Part shown: one piece after another, positions 1 through 31,150 of the stretch
How the letters are laid out: every line of letters starts with the position of its first letter
Position numbering within the stretch: the first letter of the stretch is position 1
NCBI GenBank assembly: GCA_965262915.1
Contig: OZ253564.1
Location: 1,888,001-1,952,000, forward strand
Direction of reading: 5' to 3'
Source: Candidatus Spongiisociaceae bacterium
GTDB taxonomy: Bacteria; Actinomycetota; Acidimicrobiia; Spongiisociales; Spongiisociaceae
DNA: 64,000 nucleotides
Translations under genes and position numbers: made by a program
The notes under the pieces: generated by a model
What the model saw: the letters and a program-made list of their open reading frames with translations, nothing else
What the model was told of the DNA's origin: nothing
Database searches by the model: none

Positions 1-920
1 TGGGAGATGCGGTCCAGAACCACCGCCACGATGAACAGCGCCAGCCCGGCAGAGGTCGACAGTGGGGTGTCGATGTTCAGAACCGCCCTGTACACCAAGA
101 GGCCCAGTCCGCTGGCCCCCATGATGGCGGCGATACCGATCATCGAAATCGCCAGGAGCAGGGTCTGGTTGAGGCCGGTCATGATGGCGGGACGGGCCAG
201 CGGTATCTGGACGTCGATGAGCACCCGCAGTTCCGACGCTCCGTAGGCGCGGCTGGCCTCCACCACGTCGGCGGGCACTTGGCGAACTCCGAGGTTGGTG
301 AGGCGGATCAGGGGCGGAATAGCGAACACCATCGTCACCATCGTGGCCGGCTCCGGACCGAGACCGAAGAAGAAGATGAAGGGGATGATGTAGACGTAGG
401 CATGGACCACCTGCATGGCGTCGAGGACCGGGCGTACCACCTTCCAGACCCCATCGATACGGCCAGATAGTACGCCTAGGGGAATCCCGACGATGGCGCA
501 GATCACCACCGCTACCACGATCAGTCCGATCGTCGTAACGGTCTCCTCCCAGAACTCGTTGCCCAGCAGCCCGCATACCGCTAGCAGCAGGGCCAGAGCT
601 ATTCCCACCTTCAGGTTGCGGGTGATCATCCCGACCACTAACACCCCTCCGCATACCAAGACCCAGGACATGTCGGTGATCTCCCACCACGGGTGGTATT
701 CGGGTCCGTTGACGAAGTTCCGGAACAGGAACGAGAACGGCCACTCGATGATGTCGAGGAGGGTCCCCAAGTTGGCGACGCTCCACGACACCATCTCGTC
801 CATCCAGGATCCGAACGGTATCTCCCACGCGTCGAGAATGGCGTTGTCCCAGAAAGGGACGCTCTCCTCGGTGTCGGGGCCCTGGACGAGGATGGTGGCG
901 ATGTGTGTGAGCAATGTCAT
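1..920 (-). CDS. proW: Glycine betaine/proline ABC transporter permease (ProW/OpuAB), runs off left edge
   Basis: ATG at 920 overlaps the TGA of the upstream ATPase (ATGA). Minus frame reads [16 protein letters not shown]...[64 protein letters not shown]...[36 protein letters not shown] (EAA-like motif). Confidence 0.9.
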
Positions 921-1602
921 AGATAGGTTTCCCGTTCGAAGCCGTCGATCGGTTGCTCCACCCGTCCCATCTCCTCGATGATGTGGCGCGGATCCAGGTT
1001 GCCCACCAGCCTGCCGTCCTCGTCCATCAGCAGGATGTCGGGATCGGAAGCCAGCGCTCGGGCGAGGCCGACCCGCTGCTGGCGGCCGCCGGATAGCTCG
1101 CGCGGGAGATTGCCGGCGTACGGTTCGAGACCCGCCAACGACAGGGCTTCATCGCGGCTTCGTCCCGCTCTGATTTGTCGACACCCCCGACGTTGAGCCC
1201 GTGGCCGACGTTGTCGATCATGTTCCGATGCGGGAACAAGGCGAAATGCTGGAACACCATCCCGATCTTCTGGCGGCTGGAAGCCTGGAGTCGGGCCCGT
1301 CGAGTGCTTGGACAGCGATACCGTCCACCCACACCTGGCCGGCTGTGGCCTCAAAGAGCTTGTTGACCGTGCGCAGAGCCGTGGACCTACCCGATCCGGA
1401 AAGGCCGATGAGCACGAAGATCTCGCCTGTCGAGGCCGAGAAGCTGACATCCATGATGCCGATGACATGGCCGCAATGTCCCAGCACCTCATCTTTGCTC
1501 ACCCCGGCCCGAGCGAGATCGAAGGCCCGGCCGTGCGGTTGGGGACCAAAGATTCCTATAGACGCTCTGCAAGCGTATCAGCGCGCTGTCGGCCTCCACC
1601 AC
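917..1602 (-). pseudogene. proV: Glycine betaine ABC transporter ATPase (ProV/OpuAA) pseudogene
   Basis: GGAGGAG RBS then GTG at 1602. Motifs are spread over several frames: GLSGSGRS (Walker A K>R), [34 protein letters not shown] joined directly to the CBS tail DGRLVG. At least 3 frameshifts plus a large internal deletion. Confidence 0.9.
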
Positions 1603-1716
1603 GGCGCTCCTCCCCGACTGGTCTCCGGCGCCCTGGCGTGAGACTCTGCGGACTGCCAGGCGCCTCAGTTTGACCTTAGTGGAGGGCTAGTCGCTTCGCC
1701 TTCCGAATCGGGATAT

Positions 1717-1751
1717 GTTTCACGATACGGTACTGTTCCGCATCGTAGCAC
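1717..1751. promoter_or_regulatory. Tandem 17-bp imperfect palindromic operator (GTTTCACGATACGGTAC-T-GTTCCGCATCGTAGCAC) in the proV/fhs divergon
   Basis: Same motif and spacing at 22133-22167 and 21960-21994. Confidence 0.7.
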
Positions 1752-1805: not shown

Positions 1806-3575
1806 ATGAGCGCCGGCAAAAGCTTCCCCTCCGATCTCGAGATCGCCCAAGCCGCCACACCGAGACCCATAGCCGAGATCGCCGAATCGATCGGTATCCG
1901 TCCCGGCGAGTTGATCCCCTACGGTTCCACCAAGGCCAAGGTCCACCTGGACATCCTCAAGCGGATCGGAAGCAACCCGACCGGCAGGTACGTGGACGTG
2001 ACCGCGGTCACGCCGACCCCGCTGGGCGAGGGGAAGACGACCACCACCATCGGTCTGGTGCAGGGTTTGGGGGCTCTGGGCAAGAAGGCCATTGCCACCA
2101 TCCGCCAACCGTCGATGGGTCCCACCTTCGGGATCAAGGGCGGTGCGGCCGGTGGTGGTCACAGCCAGGTCATACCAATGGACGAGTTCAACCTGCACCT
2201 CACGGGCGACATACATGCCATCAGCGTGGCGCACAACCTGGTGGCCGCCGCCATCGACGCCCGCTGGTACCACGAGCGGAGGCTGAGCGATTCCCAACTC
2301 GAGGCTCTCGGCATAGAGCGCCTGGACATCGATGTGTTCCAGACGCGCTGGCGGCGGGTGGTGGATGTCAATGATCGGGCGTTGCGCAATGTAGTGGTCG
2401 GTCTCGGAGGACGGATAGACGGCCGGCCTAGAGAGACGGGCTATGACATCACGGTCGCCTCGGAACTGATGGCGATCCTGGCTCTTGCCGACGGTAACGA
2501 CTATGCCTCGGCGCTACGCAACCTCCGGAACCGTTGCGCCCGCGTCGTCATTGGCAATGACAAGGGCGGCCGGCCGATCACTCTGGAGGACTTGGGGGTG
2601 GCGGGTGCGGTGACGGTGCTCATGCGCGACACCCTCCACCCGACCCTGATGCAGACGCTGGAGGGCCAGGCCGCCTTCGTCCACGCCGGGCCGTTTGCCA
2701 ACATCGCCCACGGGAACTCCTCGATCCTGGCCGATCGAGTAGCTCTTCAACTGGGCGACTACGTGATCACGGAATCCGGGTTCGGGTCCGACATGGGCAT
2801 GGAGAAGTTCATCGACATCAAGTGCCGGGTCTCCGGGTTGGTCCCCGATGCCGTGGTTCTCGTGGCGACGGTGAGGGCTCTCAAGACGCACGGAGGCGGT
2901 CCCAAAGTAGTGGCCGGGCGAGCGCTCGATGAGGCCTACACCAACGAGAACCTCCCGCTGCTGCAGGCCGGGTTGACCAACCTTGTTGCTCACATCGAGG
3001 GAGCTCGCCGATTCGGGTTGCGAGTGGTGGTGGCGGTGAACTCGTTTCCCACCGACACCCGGAACGAGATTGATACCGTGAAGCGGGCGGCTCTCGAGGC
3101 CGGGGCGCTTGCGGCGGTGACCGCCTCGCACTGGGCCGACGGGGGGAGTGGGGCTACGGACCTGGCCCGGGCTGTGATCGATGCCTGCGAGGAACCCAAC
3201 GACTTCCGGTTCCTCTATCCGCTGGAACACTCCATCAAACAGAAGATCGAGACCGTCGCCACCGATGTGTACGGCGCCGCCGGAGTGGAGTACTCGCCGC
3301 GGGCGGAGCGGGACATCTCCGGGTTCGAGAAGGACGGATTCGGTTACCTCCCCATATGCATGGCCAAGACACCCCTGTCGATTTCCCACGATCCGAAGCT
3401 GAAAGGGCGCCCCAGCGGGTACCGGCTGCCGGTCCGCGAGGTGAGAGCATCCGTAGGGGCAGGGTTCCTGATTCCGATCTTGGGGGCGATCAGCACCATG
3501 CCCGGCCTTGGCACCAAGCCGGCCTTCATGAACGTCGACATCGACGAGGACGGCAAGATCGTTGGGCTCTTCTGA
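1806..3575 (+). CDS. fhs: Formate--tetrahydrofolate ligase
   Basis: TPTPLGEGKTTT, GIKGGAAGGG, VHAGPFANIAHG, CMAKTPLS motifs; 589 aa. Confidence 0.97.
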   Translation: MSAGKSFPSDLEIAQAATPRPIAEIAESIGIRPGELIPYGSTKAKVHLDILKRIGSNPTGRYVDVTAVTPTPLGEGKTTTTIGLVQGLGALGKKAIATIRQPSMGPTFGIKGGAAGGGHSQVIPMDEFNLHLTGDIHAISVAHNLVAAAIDARWYHERRLSDSQLEALGIERLDIDVFQTRWRRVVDVNDRALRNVVVGLGGRIDGRPRETGYDITVASELMAILALADGNDYASALRNLRNRCARVVIGNDKGGRPITLEDLGVAGAVTVLMRDTLHPTLMQTLEGQAAFVHAGPFANIAHGNSSILADRVALQLGDYVITESGFGSDMGMEKFIDIKCRVSGLVPDAVVLVATVRALKTHGGGPKVVAGRALDEAYTNENLPLLQAGLTNLVAHIEGARRFGLRVVVAVNSFPTDTRNEIDTVKRAALEAGALAAVTASHWADGGSGATDLARAVIDACEEPNDFRFLYPLEHSIKQKIETVATDVYGAAGVEYSPRAERDISGFEKDGFGYLPICMAKTPLSISHDPKLKGRPSGYRLPVREVRASVGAGFLIPILGAISTMPGLGTKPAFMNVDIDEDGKIVGLF

Positions 3576-4146
3576 CTCGGTCCGCGAGCATGCGCACGAG
3601 CGGATCGCTCTCATCCGGTACCTAGTGGTCTGCCTGCAAGATGATTCGGCGCGCCCTGCTTGCCATCGACGCCCCTCGCCGCGTTCCGCCTCCTCGACGT
3701 ACCGCTGCGGGTACGCCTTCGTCGGCGGGCCTCGCGAGGAACGCCGCTGCCGGCGCATGCCGCACCACCATCTCACAGACAGACCACTGGTCGACTGTCT
3801 CGACCTCGATCGGTCTGCGCAGTTCTGGGGTCCGCTCCTCGGCTTGCAGCCCGGGCGTCGGCTCGACAACTACCTGTTCATGGGTTCCGCCCTCCCCGGA
3901 TGCGATCTGGTTCTCCAACTCGTGGACCGGGTCACGACCGACAAAAGTCCCATCCATTTCGATATCGAAGGGCCGAATACGGAGGACTTCGAGAAGATCG
4001 TGGCCCGCGCGGAGCAACTCGGTGGCACAATCTTGGAGACAGTCGAGGAGGCCGAGTACACGTTGACGGTCATGACCGATCCTGACGGTAACGAGTTCTG
4101 TGTGAACCGGGTGCCATCAGGAGTGCCCGGCGGTAGCGACTCGTAG
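3562..4146 (+). CDS. VOC/glyoxalase family protein carrying an in-frame 55-codon MITE insertion (start uncertain)
   Basis: VDCLDLDRSAQFW...KSPIHFDI...AEQLGG...VMTDPDGNEFC; the N-terminal strand IRYL is separated from VDC by the repeat at 3622-3790. Confidence 0.8.
   Translation: MGSSDSVREHAHERIALIRYLVVCLQDDSARPACHRRPSPRSASSTYRCGYAFVGGPREERRCRRMPHHHLTDRPLVDCLDLDRSAQFWGPLLGLQPGRRLDNYLFMGSALPGCDLVLQLVDRVTTDKSPIHFDIEGPNTEDFEKIVARAEQLGGTILETVEEAEYTLTVMTDPDGNEFCVNRVPSGVPGGSDS
3622..3790. mobile_element. MITE family A (165 bp + 4-bp target; TIR TGGTCTGYCTG...CAGACAGACCA)
   Basis: Flanked by CTAG/CTGG; near-identical copy at 40959-41127 and diverged inverted copy at 46406-46574. Confidence 0.85.
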
Positions 4147-4195: not shown

Positions 4196-6079
4196 ATGCC
4201 GAAGGCGAAGCTTCCGCGTCTTACCACCCCGTATGTCAGGCGCGGCGGTGAGTTGGCGCCGACCACGTGGGATGAGGCGCTTACCGTCGCCGCGGCCGGG
4301 CTTGCGGCTCACAGCGGCCGTTCGTACGGGATGTTCTCGTGTTCCAAGGCCACCAACGAGATGAACTTCCTGGCCCAGAAGTTCTCCCGGATCGTCTTGG
4401 GGTCCAACAACATCGACTCGTGCAACCGCACCTGACACGCTCCCTCCGTCGCCGGTCTGGCGGCAGTTCTGGGACTGGGAGGCGGGACCTCATCCTACGA
4501 GGAGATCGAGACCACCGATGTGATCCTCCTGTGGGGTTCCAACGCGCGCGAGGCGCACCCGATCTTCTTCCACCACCTCATGAAGGGTGTGCGTAACGGC
4601 GCCACCATGTACGCGGTGGATCCGCGGCGGACCACCTCGGCTATGTGGGCAGATGTCTGGTTGGGGATCGACGTGGGTTCCGATATCGCTCTTGCCAACG
4701 CGGTGGGGCGCGAGATCATCGCGTCCGGCCTACACAACCAGGCGTTCATCGACCACGCCACCTACGGGTTCGAGGCTTATGCCGAAGCCGTCGAGCCCTG
4801 GACTCCGGAGCGGGGTTCCGAAGTGACGGGCCTTCCGGCCGGGGTGATCCGCCGGATGGCCCACGACTATGCAACGGCGGAGCAGGCGCAGATCTGCTGG
4901 ACGTTGGGCATCACCGAGCACCACAACGCCACCGACAACGTACTGGCCCTCATCAACCTGGCCCTGCTCACCGGTCATGTCGGTCGGTACGGCTCCGGTT
5001 TGGTGCCCATCAGAGGCCAGAACAACGTGCAGGGCGGCGGCGACATGGGTGCGCTGCCCGACAAGCTGCCCGGCTTCCAGGATGTCGAGGACCCGGTGGC
5101 CAGAGGCAAGTTCGAGGCGCTGTGGGGTCGATCCGTTCCCGACCGGGCCGGGAAGCACATTTCCTTGATGCTCGAGGCCATGGAGCACAAGGAGATCACC
5201 GCCCTGTACGTGATCGGCGAGAACCCCGCACAGTCCGAGGCCCGTTCGGACCATGTACGGGAGATCCTGTCGGGGCTCGAATTCATGCTGGTGCAGGACA
5301 TGTTCATGACCCGGACCGCCCAGCTGGCCGATGTCGTACTTCCCGCGGCGGCGGGATGGGCGGAAACGGAGGGCACCGTGACGTCCTCCGAGAGGCGGGT
5401 ACAGCGGGTCCGGAGGGCCCTCGATCCCCCCGGGGACGCCAAGGACGACCTCGAGATCATCTCCGCGCTCGCCGACCGGATGGGCAAAGGCTGGGGGTAC
5501 CCCACTGGCGAGGAGGTGTGGGACGAACTGAGAAGTCTGTCGCCGCTGCACGGGGGCATGTCGTACCGGCGGCTCGAAGAGTCAGGTGGTCTCCAATGGC
5601 CCTGCCCCGACGAAGACCATCCGGGCACGCTGTTCCTCCACGGTGGGCTCTGGGAGGATCCCATGCCCCGGGATCCGGTCCCGTTCATGCCCACTCCGTG
5701 GGCGCCCCCGGTGGACGAGCTGACCGAGGAGTTTCCCATCCGTCTCACCACGGGACGTCGCCTCGACTCCTACAACACCGGAGTCCAATCAGGCGGATAC
5801 GGCTCACCCCTGCGGGTCGCCGCGGCCATCGAGATGGCGCCGGAGGACGGCGCGGCGCTTGCTCTGTCGGAGGGCGAGATGGTCAGCGTTACCTCGAGGC
5901 GGGGAACCCTCGAAGTTCCGGTGTTCTTCCATCGGTCTCTCCGTCCCGGACTGGCCTTCATGGCGGTCCACAATCCCGACGAGGCAGATGTGAACCTGCT
6001 CACCGTGGATGTGTGGGATCCGAAGTCGGGTACCGCGGAGTTCAAAGCCACCGCGGTCCGTGTAGAACCCGTTGCCTAG
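4196..6079 (+). CDS. fdhF: Selenocysteine-containing Mo/W-bisPGD formate dehydrogenase catalytic subunit (UGA 4433-4435 = Sec), ~627 aa
   Basis: ORFs 4196-4435 and 4520-6079 are in the same frame. IDSCNRT-U-HAPSVAGL matches the FdhF active site; RGQNNVQGGGDMG; strong RBS AAGGAGGTG. Confidence 0.93.
4436..4466 (+). promoter_or_regulatory. Bacterial SECIS element
   Basis: Hairpin GUCGCC-GGUCU-GGCGGC starting 12 nt after the in-frame UGA, with a GU-containing loop like the E. coli fdhF SECIS. Confidence 0.75.
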
Positions 6080-6181
6080 GAGGGTGGTGTGAAACCCCTT
6101 CACGGCCCGTCGACCGATGACATAATGCCTGTTCAGAGGAAGACGGGCCGTTGCTCCCACCGTTTTAGACCACCTTCCTAG
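6076..6181. mobile_element. MITE family B (~102 bp; TIR GAGGGTGGT...ACCACCTTC) with CTAG duplication at the fdhF stop codon
   Basis: CTAG at both ends; homologous copies at 17331-17437, 32545-32762 and 11893-11963. Confidence 0.88.
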
Positions 6182-6205
6182 GAGGATCCCATCGACCTGC
6201 GTCTC

Positions 6206-7987
6206 ATGTCCGCAGTACCGACTCCTGTTGAGAGGGAGGCGGTCGATGACTTGCTCGGAGCGCCCCGCTCGTCCTGGGAAGGTGGCACGCTGCAGTCCCA
6301 CGACCTCCGCGTCGCGTTCGGAGGTTACCGCCGGTCGCTCGAGAACCGTCACATGCTGCTGCCGACCCTTCACGCCGTACAGGATCGGATCGGGTGGATA
6401 AGCAAAGGAGCTCTCAACTACATATGTGAGCGGTTGGCGGTGCCACCGGCCGAGGCCTACGGGGTGGCCGGTTTCTACGCGTTGCTGGCCTTGGAGGAGC
6501 GTCCCTCTCGGGTTGCCCATGTCTGCGACGACGTGGCCTGTGGTGCAGTCGGTGGTAACGACATCCTCGCCGACCTGGAAGGTCGACCGGATATCCATCC
6601 GAGCCCGTGCCTCGGCCAATGCGACCGGGGTCCGGCCGTTTTCCTGCAGCGGGCCGGCGACGAGGATGCCATCCTGGTGGGAGCAACGTCCCAGCGGGTG
6701 TTGGCCGCCCTGGAGGGCGACGCGTTGCCGCTTCCTACGGTGACAGTCCCGCAACGGGGGGACCCGTCACTGAAGCTGCTCCGGCGGATCGGTGTGGTCG
6801 ATCCGACCTCGTTGGACGGCTACCGGGCCTCCGGTGGCTACGAAGCGCTCCTGCGAGTTCTCGAGATGGGCCCCGGGCAGGTGATCGCCGAGATAAAGGC
6901 TGCCAACCTGCGGGGACGGGGTGGAGCCGCCTTTCCGATGGGTATCAAGTGGGATGCCGTTGCCCGCTCCGCGGAGACGCCCAGCTACGTGATCTGCAAC
7001 GCCGACGAGTCCGAGCCGGGCACCTTCAAGGACCGGGTCCTTATGGAGGGCGACCCCTTTGCCCTGGTCGAATCGATGACCATTGCCGGGTTGACCGTCG
7101 GTGCCGAACTCGGCTACCTCTATATCCGGGCCGAGTACCCCGTGGCGCAGGCCCGCATGTGCCAAGCCATCGCTTCGGCGCGCGGCGCCGGCCTGTTGGG
7201 GGAGGACGTTTCGGGTTCCGGCCGATCGTTCGACATCGAGGTCCGGCGAGGGGGTGGCGCATATATCTGCGGTGAGGAGACCGCCCTGATGAACTCGATC
7301 GAAGGCAAGCGGGGAGAGCCCCGCAACAAGCCGCCGTTCCCCACCCAGGTGGGCCTGTTCGGACGCCCCACGGTCATCAACAACGTGGAGACGCTGGTCA
7401 ACGTGCTCGACATAGTTCTCGAAGGGGGGGCGGCCTACGCCGAGATCGGAACCGGGGAGTCGACCGGGCCGAAGCTCTTCTGCCTGGCCGGCGCGGTTGG
7501 CAGCCCGGGGGTGTACGAGGTTGAGTTCGGACAGACGCTGGGCTCGCTCATCGAGCTGGCCGGCGGGATCACGGGGACGGGCCACCTGGGTGCGGTGATG
7601 CTGGGCGGAGCGGCTGGAGTCTTTGTCGGAGCGCAACACCTGGACATGCCGCTGACCTTCGAGCATGCGCGGGCCCGCAACGCCACCCTCGGGTCCGGGG
7701 TGGTCCTGGTATTCGACGACGACACCGACTTCCGTGCCATATCCCGCCGGATCGCCCGGTTCTTCCGGGACGAGTCGTGCGGCCAATGCGTACCGTGCCG
7801 GGTCGGCACCGTCCGCCAGGAGGAGTTGCTGGCCCGCCACCTGGCGGGCGGGCCTTTCGAGGAGCAGCTCTTCGACGATCTGGCCCGCGTCATGATGGAC
7901 GCGTCGATCTGCGGGCTGGGACACACCGCCTCGACTGCCATCCGGTCGGCTGTCGATCTGGGCCTTCTGGGGGATTCCGGTGGCTGA
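6206..7987 (+). CDS. Fused NuoE-NuoF-like (FdsG/FdsB) diaphorase subunit of NAD-linked formate dehydrogenase
   Basis: N-term VCDDVAC/CLGQC (2Fe-2S); LRGRGGAAFP, CNADESEPGTFKDR, GAYICGEETAL, ESCGQCVPCRVG, SICGLG. Confidence 0.92.
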   Translation: MSAVPTPVEREAVDDLLGAPRSSWEGGTLQSHDLRVAFGGYRRSLENRHMLLPTLHAVQDRIGWISKGALNYICERLAVPPAEAYGVAGFYALLALEERPSRVAHVCDDVACGAVGGNDILADLEGRPDIHPSPCLGQCDRGPAVFLQRAGDEDAILVGATSQRVLAALEGDALPLPTVTVPQRGDPSLKLLRRIGVVDPTSLDGYRASGGYEALLRVLEMGPGQVIAEIKAANLRGRGGAAFPMGIKWDAVARSAETPSYVICNADESEPGTFKDRVLMEGDPFALVESMTIAGLTVGAELGYLYIRAEYPVAQARMCQAIASARGAGLLGEDVSGSGRSFDIEVRRGGGAYICGEETALMNSIEGKRGEPRNKPPFPTQVGLFGRPTVINNVETLVNVLDIVLEGGAAYAEIGTGESTGPKLFCLAGAVGSPGVYEVEFGQTLGSLIELAGGITGTGHLGAVMLGGAAGVFVGAQHLDMPLTFEHARARNATLGSGVVLVFDDDTDFRAISRRIARFFRDESCGQCVPCRVGTVRQEELLARHLAGGPFEEQLFDDLARVMMDASICGLGHTASTAIRSAVDLGLLGDSGG

Positions 7988-10304: not shown

Positions 10305-10490
10305 CCGTCTGGGACGTCGGTGGCCGGCGCCAGGTTCAGATCGAGGACCCCGATTTTCTCGCACTTCCCGAGTACCTGTGTGCGCGCGATGTATCCCGTG
10401 TCAGGGTGGGCCAGTTGCGTTACACCTTCATTTGCAATCCCCGAGGCGGGATTCTGAACGATCCCGTGCTGCTGCGGGTGGGCCGAGGGA
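10286..10490 (+). pseudogene. Internal fragment of a GcvT/DmdA-like aminomethyltransferase
   Basis: LVEDVTVWDVGGRRQVQIEDPD...RDVSRVRVGQLRYTFICNPRGGILNDPVLLR; no start and no C-terminus. Confidence 0.7.
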
Positions 10491-11631: not shown

Positions 11632-11634
11632 AGG

Positions 11635-19405: not shown

Positions 19406-19425
19406 GACCTACCTCCGGACCGCCA

Positions 19426-23593: not shown

Positions 23594-23638
23594 TCCGACC
23601 ATGTACGGCGACCAGGCACCGAGAGCGGCTCGCAGGCC

Positions 23639-24933: not shown

Positions 24934-24939
24934 CGCACC

Positions 24940-26970
24940 ATGGCCGGCTCGCCCGTGAAAGTCGTGTTCACTCCCTCGGGGAGGAGAGGCAACGTGGAAG
25001 CGGGTACCACGGTGCTCGAAGCTGCCCGCCATCTGGGAGTCGACATCGACTCGGTGTGCGGCGGTCGGGGCCTGTGCGGTCGCTGCCAGGTGACGCTGGG
25101 CGCCGCTGTCGGCATTCCCGCCACGGAAGGCCGTCTCTCGTCCCCCGAGGCCATGGAATTGGGCTACCGGGGGCGCCGCCGCCCTCTGCGGGACGGTCAC
25201 CGGCTCTCGTGCGCCGCCCGCCTGCAGGACGACGCAGTGATCGATGTTCCCCCTTACAGCCAGGTCCGCCGCCAAGTCGTTCGTAAGCGAGCCGAAGTGG
25301 TGGACATACCGGTCGATCCGGTGGTGCGGCTGCACTATCTGGAGGTGCAACCCCCCGATTTGGCTAGCCAGTCCTCCGACCTGGCCCGCACATTGCGGGC
25401 GCTGGAGGAGCAGTGGGGGATCACGGGGTCGTCGGTCGACCATCACGTGCTGGTCGATTTGCAGGACGCCCTGCGAGCCGGTGACTGGACCGTGACCCTG
25501 GCGGTCCACGACGGCGACACGGTCACCGGTGTGTGGCCCGGTTTCCACGACGGCCCGGTCGGGGTGGCGATCGACGTCGGATCGACCACCGTGGCAGGCC
25601 ACCTGTGCGATCTGTCCACGGGCTCGGTCCTCGCTTCGGTGGGGATGATGAACCCGCAGATCCGCTTCGGTGAGGATCTCATGAGCCGCGTCTCCTACGT
25701 GATGATGAACGAGGGGGGCGAAGCGGAACTGACGTCCGCCATCCGTGACGCCCTGGATCACCTGGTGGGCGAGCTGGTGGTGGAGGCCGGGCTGGAGAGG
25801 AGCGCGGTTCTCGAAGTGGCGCTGGTTGGTAATCCGATCATGCACCACCTCGTGCTCGGAATCGACCCACGGCGGCTCGGGGTGGCGCCTTTCGCGCTGG
25901 CCACCGACGGGCCTGTCCGAATCCCGTTATCCATTGTCGGGATCGAGGCCCACCCGGGTGCCCGACTCTATGTGCTGCCGTGCGTAGCGGGGCACGTGGG
26001 CGCCGACGCGGCCGGCGCGATTCTGTCGGAAGGCCCGCACCGCGGCCACGACATCCAACTGGTGGTCGACGTCGGCACCAACGCAGAGATCATGCTGGGG
26101 AACTCGGGGCGGCTGCTGGCCGCGTCGAGCCCGACCGGCCCCGCCTTCGAAGGTGCCGAGATAAGTTCCGGGCAGCGGGCCACCCCGGGAGCGATCGAGC
26201 GGGTGCGCATCGATCGTGAAACCCTCGAGCCGCGGTTCAAGGTGATCGGGGTCGATCTCTGGTCGGATGACGAGGGCTTCGAGGAAGCGGTTGCGGGGAC
26301 CGGGGTGATCGGTATCTGCGGCTCGGGCATCATCGAGGCTGTCGCCTGCCTCGCCCTGGCCGGGATCGTGTCGGCCGACGGTCTCATCCTGGAATCCACA
26401 CGTTCGGATCGGATCATCTCGGACGGTAGGTCTGCTACCTACCTGCTGCATGAAGGGTCGTCCGGGGGGGTGACCCGCATCGAGATCACCCAGACCGACG
26501 TGCGCGCCATCCAGCTGGCCAAGGCGGCGCTCTACGCCGGGATCAGGTTGCTCATGGACCACTTGGGCGTGGACCGGGTGGACGAGATCCGGCTGGCGGG
26601 CGCATTCGGCAGCCATATCGATCCGATCTATGCAATGGTGCTGGGCATGATCCCCGACTGCGATCCCGATCGCGTCTCGGCCGCAGGCAACGCGGCCGGA
26701 ACCGGGGCGATGATGGCGTTGCTCAGCGGCGCCGCCCGGGACGAGGTCGAGGATCTGGTGCGCAAGGTTGACAAGATCGAGACGGCGGTGGCACCGAGAT
26801 TCCAGAGCCATTTCGTGGAGGCGATGGCCATCCCCCACGCCACCGCTTCCGTCGAGCGACTGGCCCGGCGGATCGATCTGTCGGGGATCGTCACCGGCCC
26901 ACCCCCCACCGACCGACGAAGCCGCCGGCGGACGAGACGCCGCCGCCGCCGCTTGAAAGAGAGGCCATGA
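24940..26970 (+). CDS. ASKHA-type reductive activator of corrinoid proteins (RACo/RamA-like)
   Basis: N-term 2Fe-2S CGGRGLCGRC, DVGSTT, DVGTNAE, GPAFEG, GICGSG, LAGAFG. Confidence 0.92.
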   Translation: MAGSPVKVVFTPSGRRGNVEAGTTVLEAARHLGVDIDSVCGGRGLCGRCQVTLGAAVGIPATEGRLSSPEAMELGYRGRRRPLRDGHRLSCAARLQDDAVIDVPPYSQVRRQVVRKRAEVVDIPVDPVVRLHYLEVQPPDLASQSSDLARTLRALEEQWGITGSSVDHHVLVDLQDALRAGDWTVTLAVHDGDTVTGVWPGFHDGPVGVAIDVGSTTVAGHLCDLSTGSVLASVGMMNPQIRFGEDLMSRVSYVMMNEGGEAELTSAIRDALDHLVGELVVEAGLERSAVLEVALVGNPIMHHLVLGIDPRRLGVAPFALATDGPVRIPLSIVGIEAHPGARLYVLPCVAGHVGADAAGAILSEGPHRGHDIQLVVDVGTNAEIMLGNSGRLLAASSPTGPAFEGAEISSGQRATPGAIERVRIDRETLEPRFKVIGVDLWSDDEGFEEAVAGTGVIGICGSGIIEAVACLALAGIVSADGLILESTRSDRIISDGRSATYLLHEGSSGGVTRIEITQTDVRAIQLAKAALYAGIRLLMDHLGVDRVDEIRLAGAFGSHIDPIYAMVLGMIPDCDPDRVSAAGNAAGTGAMMALLSGAARDEVEDLVRKVDKIETAVAPRFQSHFVEAMAIPHATASVERLARRIDLSGIVTGPPPTDRRSRRRTRRRRRRLKERP

Positions 26971-26971
26971 A

Positions 26972-28510
26972 ATGGGAGCCCGGAGGAGACGCAGATCCGG
27001 AGGTCGGGCGGCGCGCCAGGCGCTGCGGACCGCCCGGGTGATAGAGCAGCAGCCCTTCCTCACCCGCAACCTGGGGCCCACCCAAGTCCTCTCGGAGGAG
27101 GGTCTGGAACTCATCGAGCACAACGCCGATACCTTGCTCGAGGAGGTGGGTATCGAGTTGATGGACTTTCCGGAGGCCCTGTCCATCTATGCCGGCGCGG
27201 GTGCCGAGATCGACGGTACCCGGGCCCGGTTCCCCAGGGGAATGTGCCGGGAGATCATCACCCGTTCCGCGCCGGGTTCGTTCATCCAGCACGCCCGCAA
27301 TCCGGCTCGTTCGGTCACCATCGGTGATCCGTACACGGTGTTCGCTCCCGCGTACGGCTCCCCGTTCGTGCGCGACGCCGACGCCGGTCGTCGCTATGCC
27401 ACCATCGAGGACTTCCGGAACTTCGCCAAGCTGACCTACATGAGTCCTGCTCTGCACCACGGGGGAGGAACCCTGTGCGAGCCTGTCGACCTACCGGTCA
27501 ACAAACGGCATCTCGACATGATCTACGCCCATGTGGTGTGCCATGACAAGCCGTTCATGTCCTCGGTGACCCGACCCGAGAGAGCTCAGGACTCGGTCGA
27601 CATGGCCAAGATCGTCTTCGGGGAGGACTTCGTCCGCGACAACACCGTGCTGATGGGGCTCTGCAACGCCAACTCCCCCCTGACGTGGGACTACGCCATG
27701 CTCGGGTCCGCCAAGGTGCTTGCCGAGAACAACCAGTGCGCCCTCATCACGCCGTTCATCATCGCCGGCGCCATGTCGCCGGTGACGGTTGCGGCGGCCG
27801 TCACCCAGACCCTGGCCGAGGCGCTGGCGGGCATCGCGTTCACCCAACTGGTCCGGCCCGGAGCTCCCGTCATATTCGGCTCGTTCGCCGCGTCGATGTC
27901 GATGCAGAGCGGCGCCCCCACGTTCGGAACCCCGGAACCGGCACTGGTGCTCTACGCGGTCGGCCAGCTCGCATCCCGCCTCGGGGTGCCTTTCCGGTCG
28001 GGCGGCAACCTGACAGCCTCGAAGACTCCCGACGCCCAGGCTGCCTACGAGAGCGTCATCACTTTCCTTCCCGCCCTCGCGGCAGGCGTCAACTTCGTTC
28101 TCCATACCGCCGGTTGGCTCGAGGGGGGCCTGACGATGGGATACGAGAAGTTCGTCCTCGATGCCGACCAGGCCTCGATGATGGCGCGGTTGGTGGGTGG
28201 CGTGGACTTGAGCGAGAACGGCCAGGCGATGGAGGCGCTCCTGACCAACGGGCCCGGTCAGCATCATCTGGGTACCGCGCACACCATGGCGAATTTCGAA
28301 AGTGCGTTCTGGGTGTCGAGCCAAGCCGATGTGGACAGCTTCGAGCAGTGGGAACTGAACGGGTCGCTGGACTCGGTGAGCAGGGCAAACGGCGAGTGGA
28401 AGCGTCTGCTGGCGGAGTACGAGGCCCCTGCCCTCGACGAGGCCGTCCACGAGGAGTTGACCGAGTGGATCGCGGCCCGCAAGGCGTCTTTCCCTGACTC
28501 GGACATTTGA
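26972..28510 (+). CDS. Non-pyrrolysine MttB-family methyltransferase (glycine betaine:corrinoid, MtgB-like)
   Basis: PAYGSPFV, CEPVD, NANSPL, AGAMSP, FRSGGNLTASKTPDAQA, GWLEGGL; no in-frame TAG. Confidence 0.9.
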   Translation: MGARRRRRSGGRAARQALRTARVIEQQPFLTRNLGPTQVLSEEGLELIEHNADTLLEEVGIELMDFPEALSIYAGAGAEIDGTRARFPRGMCREIITRSAPGSFIQHARNPARSVTIGDPYTVFAPAYGSPFVRDADAGRRYATIEDFRNFAKLTYMSPALHHGGGTLCEPVDLPVNKRHLDMIYAHVVCHDKPFMSSVTRPERAQDSVDMAKIVFGEDFVRDNTVLMGLCNANSPLTWDYAMLGSAKVLAENNQCALITPFIIAGAMSPVTVAAAVTQTLAEALAGIAFTQLVRPGAPVIFGSFAASMSMQSGAPTFGTPEPALVLYAVGQLASRLGVPFRSGGNLTASKTPDAQAAYESVITFLPALAAGVNFVLHTAGWLEGGLTMGYEKFVLDADQASMMARLVGGVDLSENGQAMEALLTNGPGQHHLGTAHTMANFESAFWVSSQADVDSFEQWELNGSLDSVSRANGEWKRLLAEYEAPALDEAVHEELTEWIAARKASFPDSDI

Positions 28511-28511
28511 G

Positions 28512-29375
28512 ATGACGGTCCCCTCGAACACCGGCCCAGGCCTCCAACGAGCTGAGAGGGCGGCGGTTAGGCGGATCCTCGAACATCCCAAGTTCGAGGT
28601 CCTTCCCCTCAAGAACGTGCTCGACCAGGTGGGGTGGTTGCCGGCCGGGGCGATCGTCTCGATAACGGCCTCTCCCACCAAGACGCTCGAGGACACGATG
28701 AACCTGGCTGCCGAACTGTGCCAACGCGGTTTCGATGTGATCCCTCATCTGTCGGCTCGCATGACCCACGACAAGACCCATCTCGCCTCTCTGCTCGGGC
28801 GGATGGAGGATCTGGAGATCTCCAAGGCCTTCCTGGTCGGCGGGGACGCACCGCAGCGGGGCATATTTCCCGACGCCTACTCCCTACTGCTGGCCATGGA
28901 CGACCTGGGCCATCATCTGTCCGAGATCGGAGTGACCTCATATCCCGAAGGACATGCCGTGATCCCGGACGGGAAGCTCCGCCAGGCTCTTGCCGACAAG
29001 CAGCCGTACGCCTCGTACATGACCACCCAGATGTGTTTCGACGCCCGGGCCATCGGCGACTTCGTGTCCGGTTGCCGGGCCGATGGCATCACCCTCCCCG
29101 TCCGGATCGGGATCCCCGGGGTGGCCGACCGGCTGAAGCTGATGCAGATCTCGGCCCGGATAGGTGTGGGACAGTCCGTGCGGTTCCTCTCCAAGCACCG
29201 GGGGTTGGTGAGCCGGTTCATCAAGCCCGGGGGATACGCGCCCGAGGACCTGCTCGAGGATCTCGCTCCCGTCGTGTGTGACGCCGAGGCCACCATCGTC
29301 GGCGTTCACATCTACACCTTCAACCAGTGCGAGACCACCGAACGCTGGCGGCAGGAATACCTGGCGACCCTGTAG
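28512..29375 (+). CDS. metF: Methylenetetrahydrofolate reductase
   Basis: FEVLP, PHLSAR, YPEGH, TTQMCFD, HIYTFN. Confidence 0.85.
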   Translation: MTVPSNTGPGLQRAERAAVRRILEHPKFEVLPLKNVLDQVGWLPAGAIVSITASPTKTLEDTMNLAAELCQRGFDVIPHLSARMTHDKTHLASLLGRMEDLEISKAFLVGGDAPQRGIFPDAYSLLLAMDDLGHHLSEIGVTSYPEGHAVIPDGKLRQALADKQPYASYMTTQMCFDARAIGDFVSGCRADGITLPVRIGIPGVADRLKLMQISARIGVGQSVRFLSKHRGLVSRFIKPGGYAPEDLLEDLAPVVCDAEATIVGVHIYTFNQCETTERWRQEYLATL

Positions 29376-31150
29376 ACGGGTGGCCGGCGAGCGGTGGCCG
29401 ATGGCAGGACTCGGTCGCCGCCCGGTTCGACGATCTGCGCGGCGAGCCCGTCCCGCTCGAACTCCGCCATCCGTACCGGGTGCTGGCGGCTAGTCGAACC
29501 GAGGAGGTCCGGCGGGTGGTGGAGGAGGCGGAAGCCGAGTCGCGGTCCGGCGCCTGGGTGGCGGGGTTCGTGGCCTACGAGGCTGCACCGGCCTTCGACG
29601 ACGCGCTGGTGGTCCGGATGCCGAAGGCGGATCTTCCCCTGGCCTGGTTCGCCGCCTTCCGCTCCGCGGCTTCCGAGACGGCCGGGCGGGGAGGCGCCTA
29701 CCGGATGGCGCCATGGCGTCCGGAGATCTCGGAGGAGGAGTACGAGGCGGACGTAACAGCCATACAGGAGCTGATCACCGCAGGCGATACCTATCAGGCC
29801 AACTACACCTTGCGACTCCGGGGGCGGGTGGAGGGCGATCTGGCAGCCGTCTACGCCGATCTACTCGAAGCGCAAAGGGGGGGATACCACGCCTTCCTCA
29901 AGACCGGGGATCACACGGTGGTGTCGGCCTCGCCGGAGTTGTTCTTCCGCTGGGACGGGCGGAGGATCGAGAACCGGCCCATGAAGGGGACCATGCCGAG
30001 GGGCCGGTGGGAGCAGGAGGACCGCCGTCACCGGGAGCGGTTGCTGGCGTCGGGGAAGGACCGGGCCGAGAACGTGATGATCGTCGATCTGTTGCGCAAC
30101 GACTTGGGCAGGGTGGCCCGGTTCGGGACCGTGCAGGTCGAGCGCCTGTTCGAGATCGAGCACTTCGAGACGGTGTGGCAGATGACCTCGACTGTCGCCG
30201 CCGAGACCCGACCGGCCGTCTCCCTCTTCGACATACTCGCGGCCATGTTCCCGTGCGGGTCCGTGACCGGGGCGCCCAAGGCGCGCACCATGGAGATAAT
30301 CCGATCGCTGGAGACCTCTCCCAGGGGGGTCTATTGCGGAGCGATCGGGCTCCTCGCGCCGCCTGGCTCGGGACGGCCCAGGGCCGAGTTCTCGGTGGCT
30401 ATCAGGACCCTCGTGGTGGACGAACGGGACCGCTCGGCCGAGTACGGGGTGGGCGGGGGAGTGGTGCACGAGTCGACCCCGACCGATGAGTACCGGGAGG
30501 CGATGGTCAAGGCGAGGATCCTGCGGCGCCGGAGGGCTCCGGTGACCCTGCTGGAAACGATGCGCTGGGATCCGGGGAAGGGAATATGGTTGCTCGACCG
30601 CCACTTGAACCGCCTTCGGTCCTCGGCCCGGTACCTGGGAATGACCCTTCCCGAAGCCGAGATCGGTCGCCTGCTGGAAGGGGTCGTCGGTGAGCACCCT
30701 CTCCGGGTACGCCTGGTGGTCCCGGAGGGCGGCGAGCCCTCGATCGAGATGGCGCGCTTCGTGGCGCGGGCGCGTGTTGTAGGTCTGGCCATCGACACCA
30801 GGCCGATCGACCGGTCCGATGTTCTCCGCTATCACAAGACAACCCGGCGAGAACCCTACGACGAAGCGGTGGCCCGACACCCGGCCGCCGACGACGTGGT
30901 GCTGGTCAACGAACGGGGCGAGGCGGTGGAGACGACGATCGCCAACCTCGCGGTGCGGATCGGGAACGAATGGCTGACTCCGCCCCTCGATGCCGGATGC
31001 CTTCCGGGGACCTACCGGGAGGAACTCATAGACAGGGACGTCATCCGTGAACGCTCCCTGCCGGTTACGGATCTGGTGGCGGCGGACGAGGTGGCCGTGA
31101 TCAACTCGGTCCAGGGTTGGCGACCCGGAAAGCTGCTCGAAGGGGTGTGA
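29327..31150 (+). CDS. pabB: Fused aminodeoxychorismate synthase I / ADC lyase (PabB-PabC); start uncertain
   Basis: YQANYT, SASPELF, PMKGT, KDRAENVMIVDLLRND, FPCGSVTGAPK; C-terminal class IV domain HKTT, ETTIAN, GCLPGT. Confidence 0.9.
   Translation: MRDHRTLAAGIPGDPVDGWPASGGRWQDSVAARFDDLRGEPVPLELRHPYRVLAASRTEEVRRVVEEAEAESRSGAWVAGFVAYEAAPAFDDALVVRMPKADLPLAWFAAFRSAASETAGRGGAYRMAPWRPEISEEEYEADVTAIQELITAGDTYQANYTLRLRGRVEGDLAAVYADLLEAQRGGYHAFLKTGDHTVVSASPELFFRWDGRRIENRPMKGTMPRGRWEQEDRRHRERLLASGKDRAENVMIVDLLRNDLGRVARFGTVQVERLFEIEHFETVWQMTSTVAAETRPAVSLFDILAAMFPCGSVTGAPKARTMEIIRSLETSPRGVYCGAIGLLAPPGSGRPRAEFSVAIRTLVVDERDRSAEYGVGGGVVHESTPTDEYREAMVKARILRRRRAPVTLLETMRWDPGKGIWLLDRHLNRLRSSARYLGMTLPEAEIGRLLEGVVGEHPLRVRLVVPEGGEPSIEMARFVARARVVGLAIDTRPIDRSDVLRYHKTTRREPYDEAVARHPAADDVVLVNERGEAVETTIANLAVRIGNEWLTPPLDAGCLPGTYREELIDRDVIRERSLPVTDLVAADEVAVINSVQGWRPGKLLEGV

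Follow-up and report, generated by a model that had tools for sequence, protein, structure and literature searches.

The window, the stretch of 64,000 nucleotides analysed here, holds four separate units that, taken as a whole, are likely to be jointly able to carry the methyl groups of quaternary amines to CO2 while also having a role in methionine synthesis. Its methyltransferase operon corresponds to the MtgBCD system, the B12-dependent gene set for glycine betaine demethylation that was described in aerobic marine bacteria in 2025 (PMC12478193). Two points are new: the operon's ‘MetF’ resembles the flavin-free mycobacterial Mfr, as judged by sequence, and its gene adjoins that of MttB in most Acidimicrobiia genomes that carry it; and the selenocysteine formate dehydrogenase is split, with a rearranged gene order. 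All of the genes listed in the preliminary description of this DNA are present, as identified by Pfam profiles, where it had placed them, and the gene content fits the route it proposed: the first betaine methyl to tetrahydrofolate (THF), later methyls via flavin and ETF, and THF-linked C1 units to CO2. The description had also presented this pathway as an anaerobe/aerobe ‘hybrid’, as integrated, and as oxidising methyls rather than making methionine; the gene content is real, but the hybrid pathway had been published in 2025, and the other two qualifications are not supported by the analysis below.

The operon (22213-31150) comprises eight genes:

22213-22920, + strand: MtgC-type corrinoid protein, B12 cap plus B12-binding domain (B12-binding 91.1 bits, B12-binding_2 60.7 bits)
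22913-23593, + strand: DUF1638 protein (PF07796, 96.6 bits)
23639-24025, + strand: PF13769 small protein, Pfam name ‘Virulence_fact’ (67.1 bits)
24022-24933, + strand: MtgD-type methyl-THF:corrinoid methyltransferase, pterin-binding (Pterin_bind 97.7 bits)
24940-26970, + strand: RACo/RamA-type ATP-dependent reductive activase of the corrinoid protein (Fer2 30.4, RACo_linker 85.2, Raco_middle 158.8, RACo_C_ter 292.5 bits)
26972-28510, + strand: non-pyrrolysine MttB-family methyltransferase, likely a glycine betaine:corrinoid methyltransferase (MtgB) (PF06253, 708.5 bits)
28512-29375, + strand: Mfr-like methylene-THF reductase homologue (Pfam MTHFR 36.3 bits)
29327-31150, + strand: PabB-PabC fusion, aminodeoxychorismate synthase component I plus class IV aminotransferase-fold lyase domain (Chorismate_bind 281.2, Aminotran_4 127.1 bits)

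From MtgC through the reductase gene the packing is tight, with overlaps or gaps of at most 45 nt. The arrangement is not due to chance, for 13 of 15 Acidimicrobiia loci share the six-gene core, and the remaining two are truncated by contig ends; PabB-PabC lies immediately 3' of the reductase gene in 12 of the 15, and the PF13769 gene is kept in all 13 loci tested. The DUF1638 and PF13769 genes had been overlooked in the preliminary description. The PF13769 protein is 44% identical to the product of the gene at the equivalent place in the Sinorhizobium cluster, and the stop codon of its gene overlaps the MtgD start (GTGA); on the basis of this overlap and a comparison of loci, we revised the MtgD start to the GTG at 24022. 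On family models, MtgD scores 353.1 bits (NF005719, cut-off 259) and PabB-PabC 357.4 bits (TIGR00553, cut-off 328.4), while the MtgC-type protein scores 206.6 and 168.4 bits on the NCBIfam MtgC models, both under the model cut-offs. The alignments of MtgC and MtgD cover MetH positions 643-859 and 325-596, respectively. RNA libraries X19 and X20 of a single study, which may contain DNA and give no expression level, yielded contigs 95-100% alike to the ETF, DMGDH and operon genes.

The system matches that described for Ruegeria, which consists of MtgB, MtgC, MtgD, RamA, DUF1638, MetF2 and MtgE (PMC12478193), and the core genes are the same in the Sinorhizobium and Paracoccus records, the former also having the PF13769 gene, with bmt 6 kb away. 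By analogy, MttB would methylate Co(I) of MtgC with a methyl group from a betaine (glycine betaine is the most likely one), and MtgD would hand this methyl on to THF; RamA and DUF1638, perhaps together with the PF13769 protein, would re-reduce oxidised cobalamin, and PabB-PabC would support folate supply. In published systems DUF1638 is a corrinoid-reactivation accessory factor, and its Phaeobacter mutant is a methionine auxotroph (PMC5764234).

MttB was correctly described as a non-pyrrolysine enzyme: no stop codon interrupts its gene, and a search of the genome revealed no tRNA-Pyl. The protein scores 667 bits to 4yyc and 378 bits to the D. hafniense MtgB (2qne/9yce), and keeps all but one of the four residues with which the latter binds betaine (Y128, R342 and H378, equivalent to Y97, R312 and H348); the fourth, F356, is replaced by glycine (G386). 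As F356 of MtgB is needed for betaine binding, the F356L substitution raising Km several hundred-fold (PMC13080624), this replacement is one reason to suspect that the substrate of MttB is a different methylated amine, for instance proline betaine, carnitine, gamma-butyrobetaine, choline or some betaine made by the sponge. The same study reports that other MttB-family enzymes with R312, and often H348, use different substrates (PMC13080624), and the genome encodes two further MttB paralogues, the total of three implying several substrates. We nevertheless consider another substrate unlikely for this particular enzyme. Alone among the three paralogues it retains the Tyr together with the Arg and His, and its gene is the one that has DMGDH and ETF as neighbours, to which the dimethylglycine formed would pass. 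It also shares ~60% identity with the proteins of the Sinorhizobium and Paracoccus clusters, and near the Sinorhizobium one there are bmt and an ABC gene for glycine betaine. Glycine betaine is the likely substrate on these sequence grounds. Two ABC systems of the OpuAC type lie within 45 kb upstream, as does a gene set of the carnitine-to-betaine type.

The later methyl groups bring in two neighbouring features that are divergent from the operon:

17646-19405, - strand: ETF alpha and beta (ETF_alpha 113.9 bits, ETF 106.6 bits)
19426-21936, - strand: dimethylglycine/sarcosine dehydrogenase-family enzyme (DAO 163, FAO_M 58, GCV_T 237, GCV_T_C 31 bits)

The listed ETF alpha frame is over-extended; beta corresponds to 18638-19405. 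The DMGDH-type gene is found at 85% identity or above in 12 of the 15 loci, and ETF beta is kept beside it in 12 of 15. Because the genome has 17 GCV_T matches, this gene among them, we give the enzyme a family-level name and no substrate. Together with ETF it would take a later methyl as methylene-THF, passing the electrons to the respiratory chain; COX1 is present, and we therefore take the genome to be that of an oxygen-respiring organism. The checks proposed in the preliminary description found FolD encoded elsewhere in the genome and no ACS (CdhC) anywhere in it, while for sarcosine oxidase they gave a candidate: next to a weak GCV_T match there is a frame of SoxA size, which suggests that the enzyme may be encoded.

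The gene previously called MetF is present, starting one base past the MttB stop, but it is not an ordinary MetF: it reaches just 36 bits on the Pfam MTHFR profile, and its product scores 118.9 bits to 7xg9 versus at most 29 bits to FAD-type MTHFRs. In the alignment to 7xg9, a Glu of the query stands opposite a Glu near the N-terminus, which we take to be the catalytic Glu of Mfr. The gene is the single PF02219 match, and hence the sole MTHFR-family gene, of a genome that has no canonical MetF. Its association with MttB is class-wide: 46 Acidimicrobiia genomes have it, directly adjoining MttB in 31 of them, and it occurs in 43 of 53 MttB-positive versus 3 of 248 MttB-negative genomes (E <=1e-50). 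The two alphaproteobacterial clusters that we inspected have MetF plus MetV instead. Homologues on Rhodococcus and Rhizobium plasmids adjoin GCV_T-family demethylase-type genes, and the Rhodococcus group also includes purU, pabB and a gene resembling FolD. These associations favour an oxidative role for the reductase. The enzyme would interconvert methyl-THF and methylene-THF, and its likeness to Mfr suggests that it is flavin-free. Should it really be flavin-free and NAD-linked as Mfr is, methyl-THF oxidation with NAD+ would be energetically uphill, judging by the redox potentials; in Sphingobium, the catabolic MTHFR that has been characterised uses FAD to the exclusion of NAD (PMC11868366). 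The step may thus run in either direction.

The contrast drawn in the preliminary description between oxidation and methionine synthesis is a false choice. It rested on the absence of a homocysteine methyltransferase domain, which is correct for the window, where no PF02574 match was found. The whole genome has one (C1:1367599), 546 kb away, in a stand-alone BHMT/MtgE-type homocysteine methyltransferase gene (NF005718, 381.8 bits, cut-off 338). No MetH-size B12 frame and no canonical MetE were found in the genome; a PF01717 search gave three weak core-MetE-like genes, one of which could be a true methionine synthase. MtgC, MtgD and this distant MtgE-type enzyme match the split methionine synthase of Phaeobacter (PMC5764234), and would probably also be the cell's B12-dependent methionine synthase. 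An operon serving only a split MetH, its homocysteine domain encoded elsewhere, had been named as what would overturn the oxidative reading. With the sole PF02574 gene located elsewhere, MetH lacking, the MetE-like genes weak and one MTHFR, half of that picture holds: the domain is indeed elsewhere, but the word ‘only’ does not apply.

One could go further and see the operon as purely anabolic: it would provide a split methionine synthase that depends on B12, the factors that reactivate it, the sole MTHFR and a folate gene, and in it MttB merely gives a betaine methyl for methionine (a three-protein equivalent of BHMT) and has no energy role. The single homocysteine methyltransferase and single MTHFR in a genome with neither MetH nor canonical MetE agree with this, as do the anabolic flavour of PabB-PabC and the reductive, methionine-supplying direction of mycobacterial Mfr (PMC11094777). 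We nonetheless regard it as very unlikely. In 12 of 15 loci the DMGDH-type gene and ETF are divergent neighbours of the operon, adjacent genes are for betaine transport and carnitine-type catabolism, and the genome has 17 matches to the GCV_T domain. The Mfr-like gene tracks MttB rather than methionine synthesis, being absent from 245 of the 301 genomes of the class (E <=1e-10), and eight genomes with the gene beside or near MttB keep a canonical MetF elsewhere. Furthermore, it is reported that Ruegeria cannot grow on betaine without the same proteins, even with methionine in the medium (PMC12478193). In our reading, betaine oxidation and methionine synthesis are probably both functions of the operon.

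Fhs and FDH, to which the last steps of oxidation would fall, are encoded near the start of the window, where the genes are:

3-920, - strand: permease of an OpuA-type (betaine-family) ABC transporter (BPD_transp_1 72.8 bits)
917-1577, - strand: ABC ATPase gene remnant (stop-to-stop frames)
1806-3575, + strand: Fhs, formate--tetrahydrofolate ligase (FTHFS 822.5 bits, full length)
3562-4146, + strand: glyoxalase-like small protein (Glyoxalase_6 68.8 bits)
4196-6079, + strand: catalytic molybdopterin part of formate dehydrogenase (FDH), selenocysteine encoded by TGA 4433-4435 (translation with TGA=U)
6206-7987, + strand: NuoE-NuoF fusion, FMN/NAD(H) diaphorase subunit (Complex1_51K 156.9, 2Fe-2S_thioredx 67, NADH_4Fe-4S 67.1 bits)
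7980-8963, + strand: separate Fe-S protein with the FDH alpha N-terminal domains, 2Fe-2S, two 4Fe-4S and Molybdop_Fe4S4 (Pfam)
9027-10304, + strand: MFS transporter (MFS_1 113.8 bits)
10507-17388: ADH, two PGA_cap genes and a LytR gene

The in-frame TGA lies in the motif SCNRT-U-HAPSVAGL in all six sequences, and the genome has adjacent selA and selB as well as tRNA-Sec. The best solved relatives of the catalytic part are HDCR FdhF (7qv7, 504 bits) and FdhH (1aa6, 465 bits); both alignments begin at about chain residue 60, the catalytic part having no N-terminal Fe4S4 domain of its own. That portion is encoded after the NuoE-NuoF gene, by the Fe-S protein, which aligns to FDH alpha residues 23-304 (9wxb_B, 6tg9_A); the best 120 proteins of similar size listed for it are all 314-392 aa. 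The large subunit is thus split, and the gene order is identical in five of five relatives. FDH beta subunits (6vw7_B, 6tg9_B, 7e5z_B) are among the solved relatives of the NuoE-NuoF fusion. The dehydrogenase is probably NAD-linked. Fhs is the first gene of the module and the MFS gene follows the Fe-S gene in all five relatives, while the glyoxalase-like gene, whose true start is probably further downstream, is present in two.

The permease gene extends past the window start, and a double-OpuAC binding protein (OpuAC 207 bits) is encoded just upstream. The ATPase gene, as assembled, is shortened and broken into three reading frames, and the sequence that should join Walker B to the C-terminal end is missing; in all four relatives checked the frame is intact (413-426 aa). 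The broken ATPase counts against the betaine-pathway explanation.

The word ‘integrated’ overstates the link of Fhs and FDH to the operon, because the module lies ~18-23 kb from it in just two of the five relatives and 0.11-2 Mb away in the other three; in the window itself, ~7 kb of cell-envelope genes separate the Fhs/FDH unit from the ETF/DMGDH and methyltransferase operons. It is possible, if doubtful, that we see the lineage's general formate and C1 module (for formate detoxification, electron-donor use or assimilation via Fhs), lying near the operon incidentally. Besides the distances, its own MFS transporter in all five relatives and the reversibility of Fhs fit such a role. Against it, the module stands back to back with the betaine-family transporter in the window and, with the permease beside Fhs, in four of the five relatives, and in the proteome reported for Ruegeria betaine induces THF-linked C1 oxidation (PMC12478193). 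In the betaine route that we prefer, FolD, Fhs and then the NAD-linked split selenocysteine formate dehydrogenase would complete the oxidation to CO2.

The host is an aerobic member of the Acidimicrobiia, with close relatives that bear sponge-symbiont names, in which the four transcription units together could convert quaternary-amine methyl groups to CO2.

The preliminary description had treated the first 31 kb of the window as a single integrated module for betaine-methyl oxidation. Pfam scans of the window's long frames recovered all of the genes that it named, with corrections, and yielded the following layout.

Main units of the window (coordinates, strand where assigned, content; Pfam scan of long frames)
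3–920 (−): ABC permease
1806–3575: Fhs
4196–8963: formate dehydrogenase genes
10507–17388: zinc-ADH-type protein, a frame without assignment, two PGA_cap proteins and a LytR protein
17646–21936 (−): ETF alpha, ETF beta and a DMGDH-type gene
22213–31150 (+): the operon, from MtgC to PabB-PabC

Given the gene content of 10507–17388, the 31 kb represent several units rather than one. The source genome is a single contig (5.06 Mb, 64% G+C, rated 96.4% complete). The closest loci in other genomes, with MttB proteins 82–92% identical to that of the window, carry the titles Acidimicrobiia or Candidatus Spongiisociaceae, and this family is placed in Actinomycetota, class Acidimicrobiia; the host was therefore rightly called an actinobacterium. 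An Rfam search of the whole window returned no match at the gathering score, and thus no cobalamin, THF, glycine or SAM riboswitch; a tRNA scan of the window found no tRNA. Several further features of the window are worth recording. The OpuA-type transporter ATPase gene at 917–1577 (−) lies in three frames with its middle part missing, and may be either a genuine pseudogene or an artefact of assembly; the relatives' genes are intact and encode 413–426 aa. The frame of a GCV_T fragment at 10217–10483 (+; 38 bits, profile positions 11–100) overlaps the MFS gene at the latter's 3' end, and the fragment resembles the remains of an aminomethyltransferase-type gene. Downstream of the operon lie a Fic/DOC-domain protein adjoining a PIN-domain protein (34174–36299, −), possibly toxin-antitoxin-type genes, and a further cobalamin-dependent enzyme, a class II (B12-dependent) ribonucleotide reductase with a TSCPD domain (36367–39885, −).

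The operon genes follow the order MtgC, DUF1638, PF13769, MtgD, RamA, MttB, MTHFR-like gene (hereafter the reductase) and PabB-PabC, with gaps or overlaps of at most 45 nt from MtgC through the reductase, which begins one base past the MttB stop. Two of these genes, DUF1638 (22913–23593) and PF13769 (23639–24025, +), had initially been overlooked. All 13 of the Acidimicrobiia loci tested keep the PF13769 protein (128 aa, 67 bits). Over its first 60 residues the long 'MtgD' frame is not conserved, and we therefore place the MtgD start at GTG 24022, overlapping the stop of the PF13769 gene as GTGA. The core from MtgC to the reductase is found in 13 of 15 Acidimicrobiia loci, the remaining two being truncated at contig ends. 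In 12 of the 15, PabB-PabC comes directly next (7 kb off in one, not found in one, with one contig too short), and 12 of the 15 have the divergent DMGDH and ETF beta genes. No such partners were seen within 10 kb of MttB in 65 further loci, which have mostly alphaproteobacterial titles and MttB proteins 57–65% identical to the window's. The small PF13769 'virulence factor' protein is common to actinobacterial and alphaproteobacterial mtg clusters (Sinorhizobium meliloti record L125:5108–5410, 44% identity); neither of the two key papers on these systems names it in the main text.

The MttB protein of the window (PF06253, 708.5 bits, 512 aa, no internal stop) is of the non-pyrrolysine type. When compared to solved chains, it scores 667 bits to 4yyc, 378 bits to Desulfitobacterium hafniense MtgB (2qne, 9yce) and 104 bits to the pyrrolysine MttB. 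A pyrrolysine reading was considered and ruled out: the gene has no TAG in frame, and the 51 tRNA/tmRNA genes found in the genome do not include a tRNA-Pyl. In D. hafniense MtgB, glycine betaine is bound by Y97, R312, H348 and F356 (Picking et al. 2026, PMC13080624). Counting by hand along the 2qne alignment (chain numbering is native plus 16), we found that Y128, R342 and H378 of the window protein keep the first three contacts, while F356 is replaced by G386, with W382 four residues before it; the local sequence of 4yyc at this position is the same as in the window protein. With the contact set incomplete, we do not file the window MttB as a strict MtgB orthologue. As judged by the residues kept, glycine betaine is our best guess for its substrate. 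The two systems share a TIM-barrel MttB-family enzyme with the Y97, R312 and H348 equivalents, methyl transfer to a corrinoid and then to THF, and RamA-type activation; they differ in the loss of F356, in that the window MtgC scores under both NCBIfam MtgC cut-offs, and in that the window's host is aerobic and has no Wood-Ljungdahl enzymes.

The source genome encodes two further MttB paralogues. The second (G000:C1:3818369–3819874, on the single contig of the source genome; L006:10078–11895 in the locus record) lies inside a histidine-utilisation cluster with HutH, IclR, HutU and two amidohydrolases. The Tyr is lost in it, the carboxylate-binding Arg and His are retained, and it might act on a histidine-derived betaine. 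The third (G000:C1:1868636–1870123; L007:14576–16138) lies downstream of a second DMGDH-type gene and adjoins an MFS gene and a carnitine-type catabolic cluster; all three betaine contacts are lost, and it scores 188 bits to the pyrrolysine MttB versus 167 to MtgB. Profile searches of the genome gave no B12-binding match near either paralogue, and MtgC, MtgD and RamA of the window may therefore serve all three.

The operon is a variant of a system already described in aerobic Ruegeria pomeroyi, which consists of MtgB (PF06253), MtgC, MtgD, RamA, DUF1638 and MetF2, with MetF2 being a MetF paralogue proposed to oxidise methyl-THF and with the BHMT-like module MtgE encoded apart (Mausz et al. 2025, PMC12478193). 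In that organism MtgC and MtgD are indispensable for growth on glycine betaine and for methionine synthesis alike, and approximately 70% of the marine genomes with MtgBCD lack MetH (PMC12478193). A three-gene split methionine synthase, with a RamA-like protein and DUF1638, was described earlier in Phaeobacter (Price et al. 2018, PMC5764234); aerobic Mtg systems or split methionine synthases are known from R. pomeroyi, Phaeobacter inhibens and S. meliloti (PMC12478193; PMC5764234), and Actinomycetota feature in the main text of PMC12478193 only as 5% of the ocean mtgC reads. The families and roles match: PF06253 methyltransferase, corrinoid protein with cap and B12-binding domains (PF02607 and PF02310), separate pterin-binding methyltransferase (PF00809; MtgD scores 353 bits on NF005719, cut-off 259), and the RamA-like activase with RACo domains and DUF1638 (PF07796), both inside the operon. 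Also shared are an MTHFR gene inside the cluster, a BHMT-like homocysteine module elsewhere, the absence of MetH and adjoining genes for dimethylglycine demethylation. The differences are the host (Actinomycetota, class Acidimicrobiia), the presence of every part except MtgE in one operon, and the PabB-PabC fusion appended at its end. Annotated records of S. meliloti and Paracoccus methylovorus show the same core genes around an MttB with about 60% identity to that of the window; the Sinorhizobium record has bmt 6 kb from the cluster and a PF13769-type gene. In both records the MTHFR is a MetF and MetV pair, whereas that of the window is Mfr-like. The preliminary description was right about the chemistry of the pathway and mistaken in opposing it to methionine synthesis, and the pathway that it presented as a hybrid had been published (Mausz et al. 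2025, PMC12478193). To this system the window adds a lineage-wide variant with an Mfr-like reductase, a PabB-PabC fusion and a shared PF13769 gene, besides a loose association with a split selenocysteine formate dehydrogenase.

The proposal that the genes oxidise betaine methyls 'rather than' supply methionine is a false opposition. The genome has a single PF02574 match, outside the window: a stand-alone, 369-aa gene adjoining an OpuAC-type ABC system, which passes the NCBIfam BHMT equivalog NF005718 (381.8 bits versus 338), a family reinterpreted as MtgE by Mausz et al. (PMC12478193). This MtgE-type protein is the sole homocysteine methyltransferase gene of the genome and would stand in for part of a classical MetH that is absent: when aligned to the MetH model, it covers positions 4–324, MtgD 325–596 and MtgC 643–859, and of the seven B12-binding matches in the genome none lies in a frame of MetH size (the longest is 502 aa). 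PF01717 matches only three short genes (98, 75.5 and 41+27 bits), far under every NCBIfam methionine synthase cut-off, and PF02219 matches only the reductase of the operon. Taken together, these results make it very likely that the operon is needed for methionine too. The use of one of the core-MetE-like genes as methionine synthase remains an alternative; these genes, at G000:C1:1323146, 857132 and 4310076 (locus records L098, L099 and L100), encode 357–389 aa, and one of them adjoins an N,N-dimethylformamidase-like gene.

The reductase itself sets the window apart from the published clusters. It scores 36 bits on the Pfam MTHFR profile. Among solved structures its best and sole strong relative is 7xg9, presumably the flavin-independent enzyme of Mycobacterium smegmatis (118.9 bits over residues 15–280); FAD-type MTHFRs reach at most 29 bits, and no solved MTHFR besides 7xg9 exceeds 30 bits at E ≤0.01. 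In this alignment a Glu of the query stands opposite a Glu of 7xg9 near the N-terminus, which we take to be the catalytic residue of Mfr; in sequence, the reductase is nearer Mfr than the FAD-type MTHFRs. Its identity to Mfr is about one third, estimated by eye from the alignment. To the MetF of the Sinorhizobium and Paracoccus clusters it is 23% identical over 175 residues (25 bits); that pair of clusters has a MetF at 118 and 111 bits on PF02219 and a MetV-like protein at 97 and 93 bits on PF12225. According to Gehl et al. (2024, PMC11094777), Mfr lacks flavin, uses NADH and had been studied only in Mycobacteriales. The window gene, unlike Mfr, belongs to a catabolic demethylase operon, and this suggests a physiological direction opposite to that of Mfr.

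The pairing of reductase and MttB recurs in other genomes of the class. MttB is found in 53 of the 301 sampled genomes of Acidimicrobiia and the reductase (E ≤1e-50) in 46. Comparing the coordinates of the two match tables by hand, we found the reductase gene within 130 nt of the MttB gene and on the same strand in 31 of these 46 genomes, 6–50 kb away on the same contig in eight, and on another contig in four (fragmented assemblies); three genomes lack an MttB match, and ten MttB-positive genomes lack the reductase. In the window's own order, 30 of the 31 reductase genomes have the weak PF02219 match alone, that is, no canonical MetF, whereas eight genomes of other families (G029, G056, G060, G068, G084, G112, G196 and G220 of the sample) have a canonical MetF elsewhere as well. 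This tally took in three genomes flagged as unpublished, on which no claim is based.

Mfr-like homologues also occur on 96 plasmid records. On a Rhodococcus opacus plasmid (L122) the Mfr-like gene is flanked on one side by a GCV_T-family gene and on the other by purU and a FolD-like gene; pabB lies upstream, and protocatechuate dioxygenase genes are at the same locus. On plasmids of Rhizobium leguminosarum (L121) and Haloarcula (L123) the Mfr-like gene adjoins a GCV_T-family gene. The Rhodococcus and Rhizobium homologues are nearer 7xg9 than the FAD enzymes. These neighbourhoods suggest a wider catabolic role of the Mfr-like family.

A dedicated enzyme that oxidises methyl-THF beside THF-dependent demethylases has a precedent in the FAD-containing 'type 4' MTHFR (Yu et al. 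2025, PMC11868366). This S6MTHFR, which evolved from an ordinary MetF, is coupled with LigM, DesA, CmuAB and Dmt, and the main text of the paper mentions neither Mfr nor MttB (PMC11868366). The arrangement in the window is alike in placing a demethylase that makes methyl-THF beside a dedicated oxidising MTHFR and in its tie to methionine supply; it is unlike in that S6MTHFR is of the FAD type, while 7xg9 is the sole strong solved relative of the window reductase. As judged by title or the start of the abstract, we found no paper joining Mfr-type enzymes with MttB systems. We tentatively suggest, without holding it to be the likelier outcome, that in Acidimicrobiia the methyl-THF from B12-dependent betaine demethylation may be oxidised by a flavin-free enzyme of the Mfr type that works in the reverse direction with NAD(P)+, a reaction that would run against the NAD couple.

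The fate of the one-carbon units beyond this step would involve Fhs and formate dehydrogenase. Reading TGA 4433–4435 as selenocysteine gives a 627-aa protein (4196–6079) that aligns to FdhF and FdhH from approximately chain residue 60, and thus represents the catalytic part without the Fe4S4 domain. That domain, together with a 2Fe-2S and two 4Fe-4S sites, is carried by a 327-aa protein (7980–8963), and a NuoE-NuoF fusion gene lies between the two. Instead of a single alpha polypeptide with Fe-S and molybdopterin domains, the window therefore has two genes, 7980–8963 and 4196–6079. The best 120 relatives of similar size listed for the Fe-S protein are all 314–392 aa long. Fhs, the catalytic part, NuoEF, the Fe-S part and MFS follow one another in this order in five of five relatives, and the TGA occurs in the same motif in six of six sequences. 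The decoding machinery accompanies this in-frame UGA at the active-site position: the genome has adjacent selA and selB and a tRNA-Sec, with no sel genes near the latter, selA and selB being found elsewhere. A hairpin is predicted for the SECIS region 4433–4500, with a z-score of 0.55 (139 of 200 shuffles fold as well), and no Rfam family reached the gathering score for the hairpin after the UGA; the 15 bases GTCGCCGGTCTGGCG are identical in six of six sequences. The cofactor domains are like those of FdsABG (6tg9, 6vw7, 9wxb), MeFDH1 (7e5z) and Escherichia coli FdhH (1aa6): the selenocysteine occupies the FdhH-type active-site position, and the NuoE/F-type diaphorase is fused as in the beta subunit of 7e5z. 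Unlike in the NAD-dependent formate dehydrogenases, the window's alpha is divided between two genes in swapped order, with the Fe4S4 domain and the molybdopterin domains on different proteins. In the window and in two of five relatives, approximately 18–23 kb separate the unit from the operon; in the remaining three it is 0.11, 1.1 and 2.0 Mb away. It abuts the OpuA-type permease in four of five. The association of the operon with the split formate dehydrogenase is loose.

The preliminary description had also proposed a genome search for FolD, sarcosine oxidase and ACS/CODH. FolD is present as a single copy beside purH. For sarcosine oxidase there is a 1058-aa frame of SoxA size, and the GCV_T match beside it is weak. 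GCV_T-domain matches number 17 genome-wide, this frame among them, with several in frames of 770–1060 aa, implying a large set of putative THF-dependent demethylating oxidoreductases. No PF03598 (CdhC) match, and hence no ACS/CODH, was found in this genome rated 96.4% complete; an acetogen-like anaerobic reading is rejected because COX1 is present and CdhC absent. A complete OpuA-type system lies upstream of the window, as does a cluster of genes for BKACE, 3-hydroxyacyl-CoA dehydrogenase-thioesterase, acyl-CoA dehydrogenase and enoyl-CoA hydratase; in our own assignment, this cluster resembles carnitine-to-betaine catabolism. RNA-library contigs are 95–100% alike on the ETF, DMGDH and operon genes (X19 and X20, metatranscriptome runs of one study labelled sponge metagenome; X17, a probable RNA run of another study). 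These contigs are consistent with transcription in the host, with DNA carry-over possible, and give no expression levels. There is essentially no cover on 11.2–17.2 kb or 29.9–31.2 kb, which is no sign of silence; the depths cannot rank genes.

Animal tissue and seawater are rich in glycine betaine and carnitine. To our knowledge, it was not until 2025 that an aerobic B12-dependent route for their use was recognised, and then only in Proteobacteria. Our literature search found no paper on sponge Acidimicrobiia with glycine betaine and carnitine. In the window this route is nearly complete within a single operon, in an actinobacterial lineage of sponge type, and through the cluster the symbiont's needs for B12, selenium, folate and methionine are tied to methylated amines from the host. 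The Mfr-like family, so far studied only as a biosynthetic mycobacterial enzyme, is represented here by a gene tightly paired with a demethylase that produces methyl-THF. If the oxidative role suggested for the reductase is correct, it would be a third, independent solution besides the type 4 FAD MTHFR found in lignin degraders and the MetF/MetV pair that alphaproteobacterial mtg clusters use. In genomes that have lost canonical MetF, the same enzyme and the corrinoid hub would then form the cell's sole methionine route, and one operon would cover betaine catabolism, the supply of methionine and, through PabB-PabC, that of folate. The plasmid-borne Mfr-like genes beside GCV_T-type demethylase genes would, in that case, point to a wide and so far unrecognised class of catabolic methyl-THF dehydrogenases, and the known enzymology of methyl-group oxidation in aerobes would be widened.
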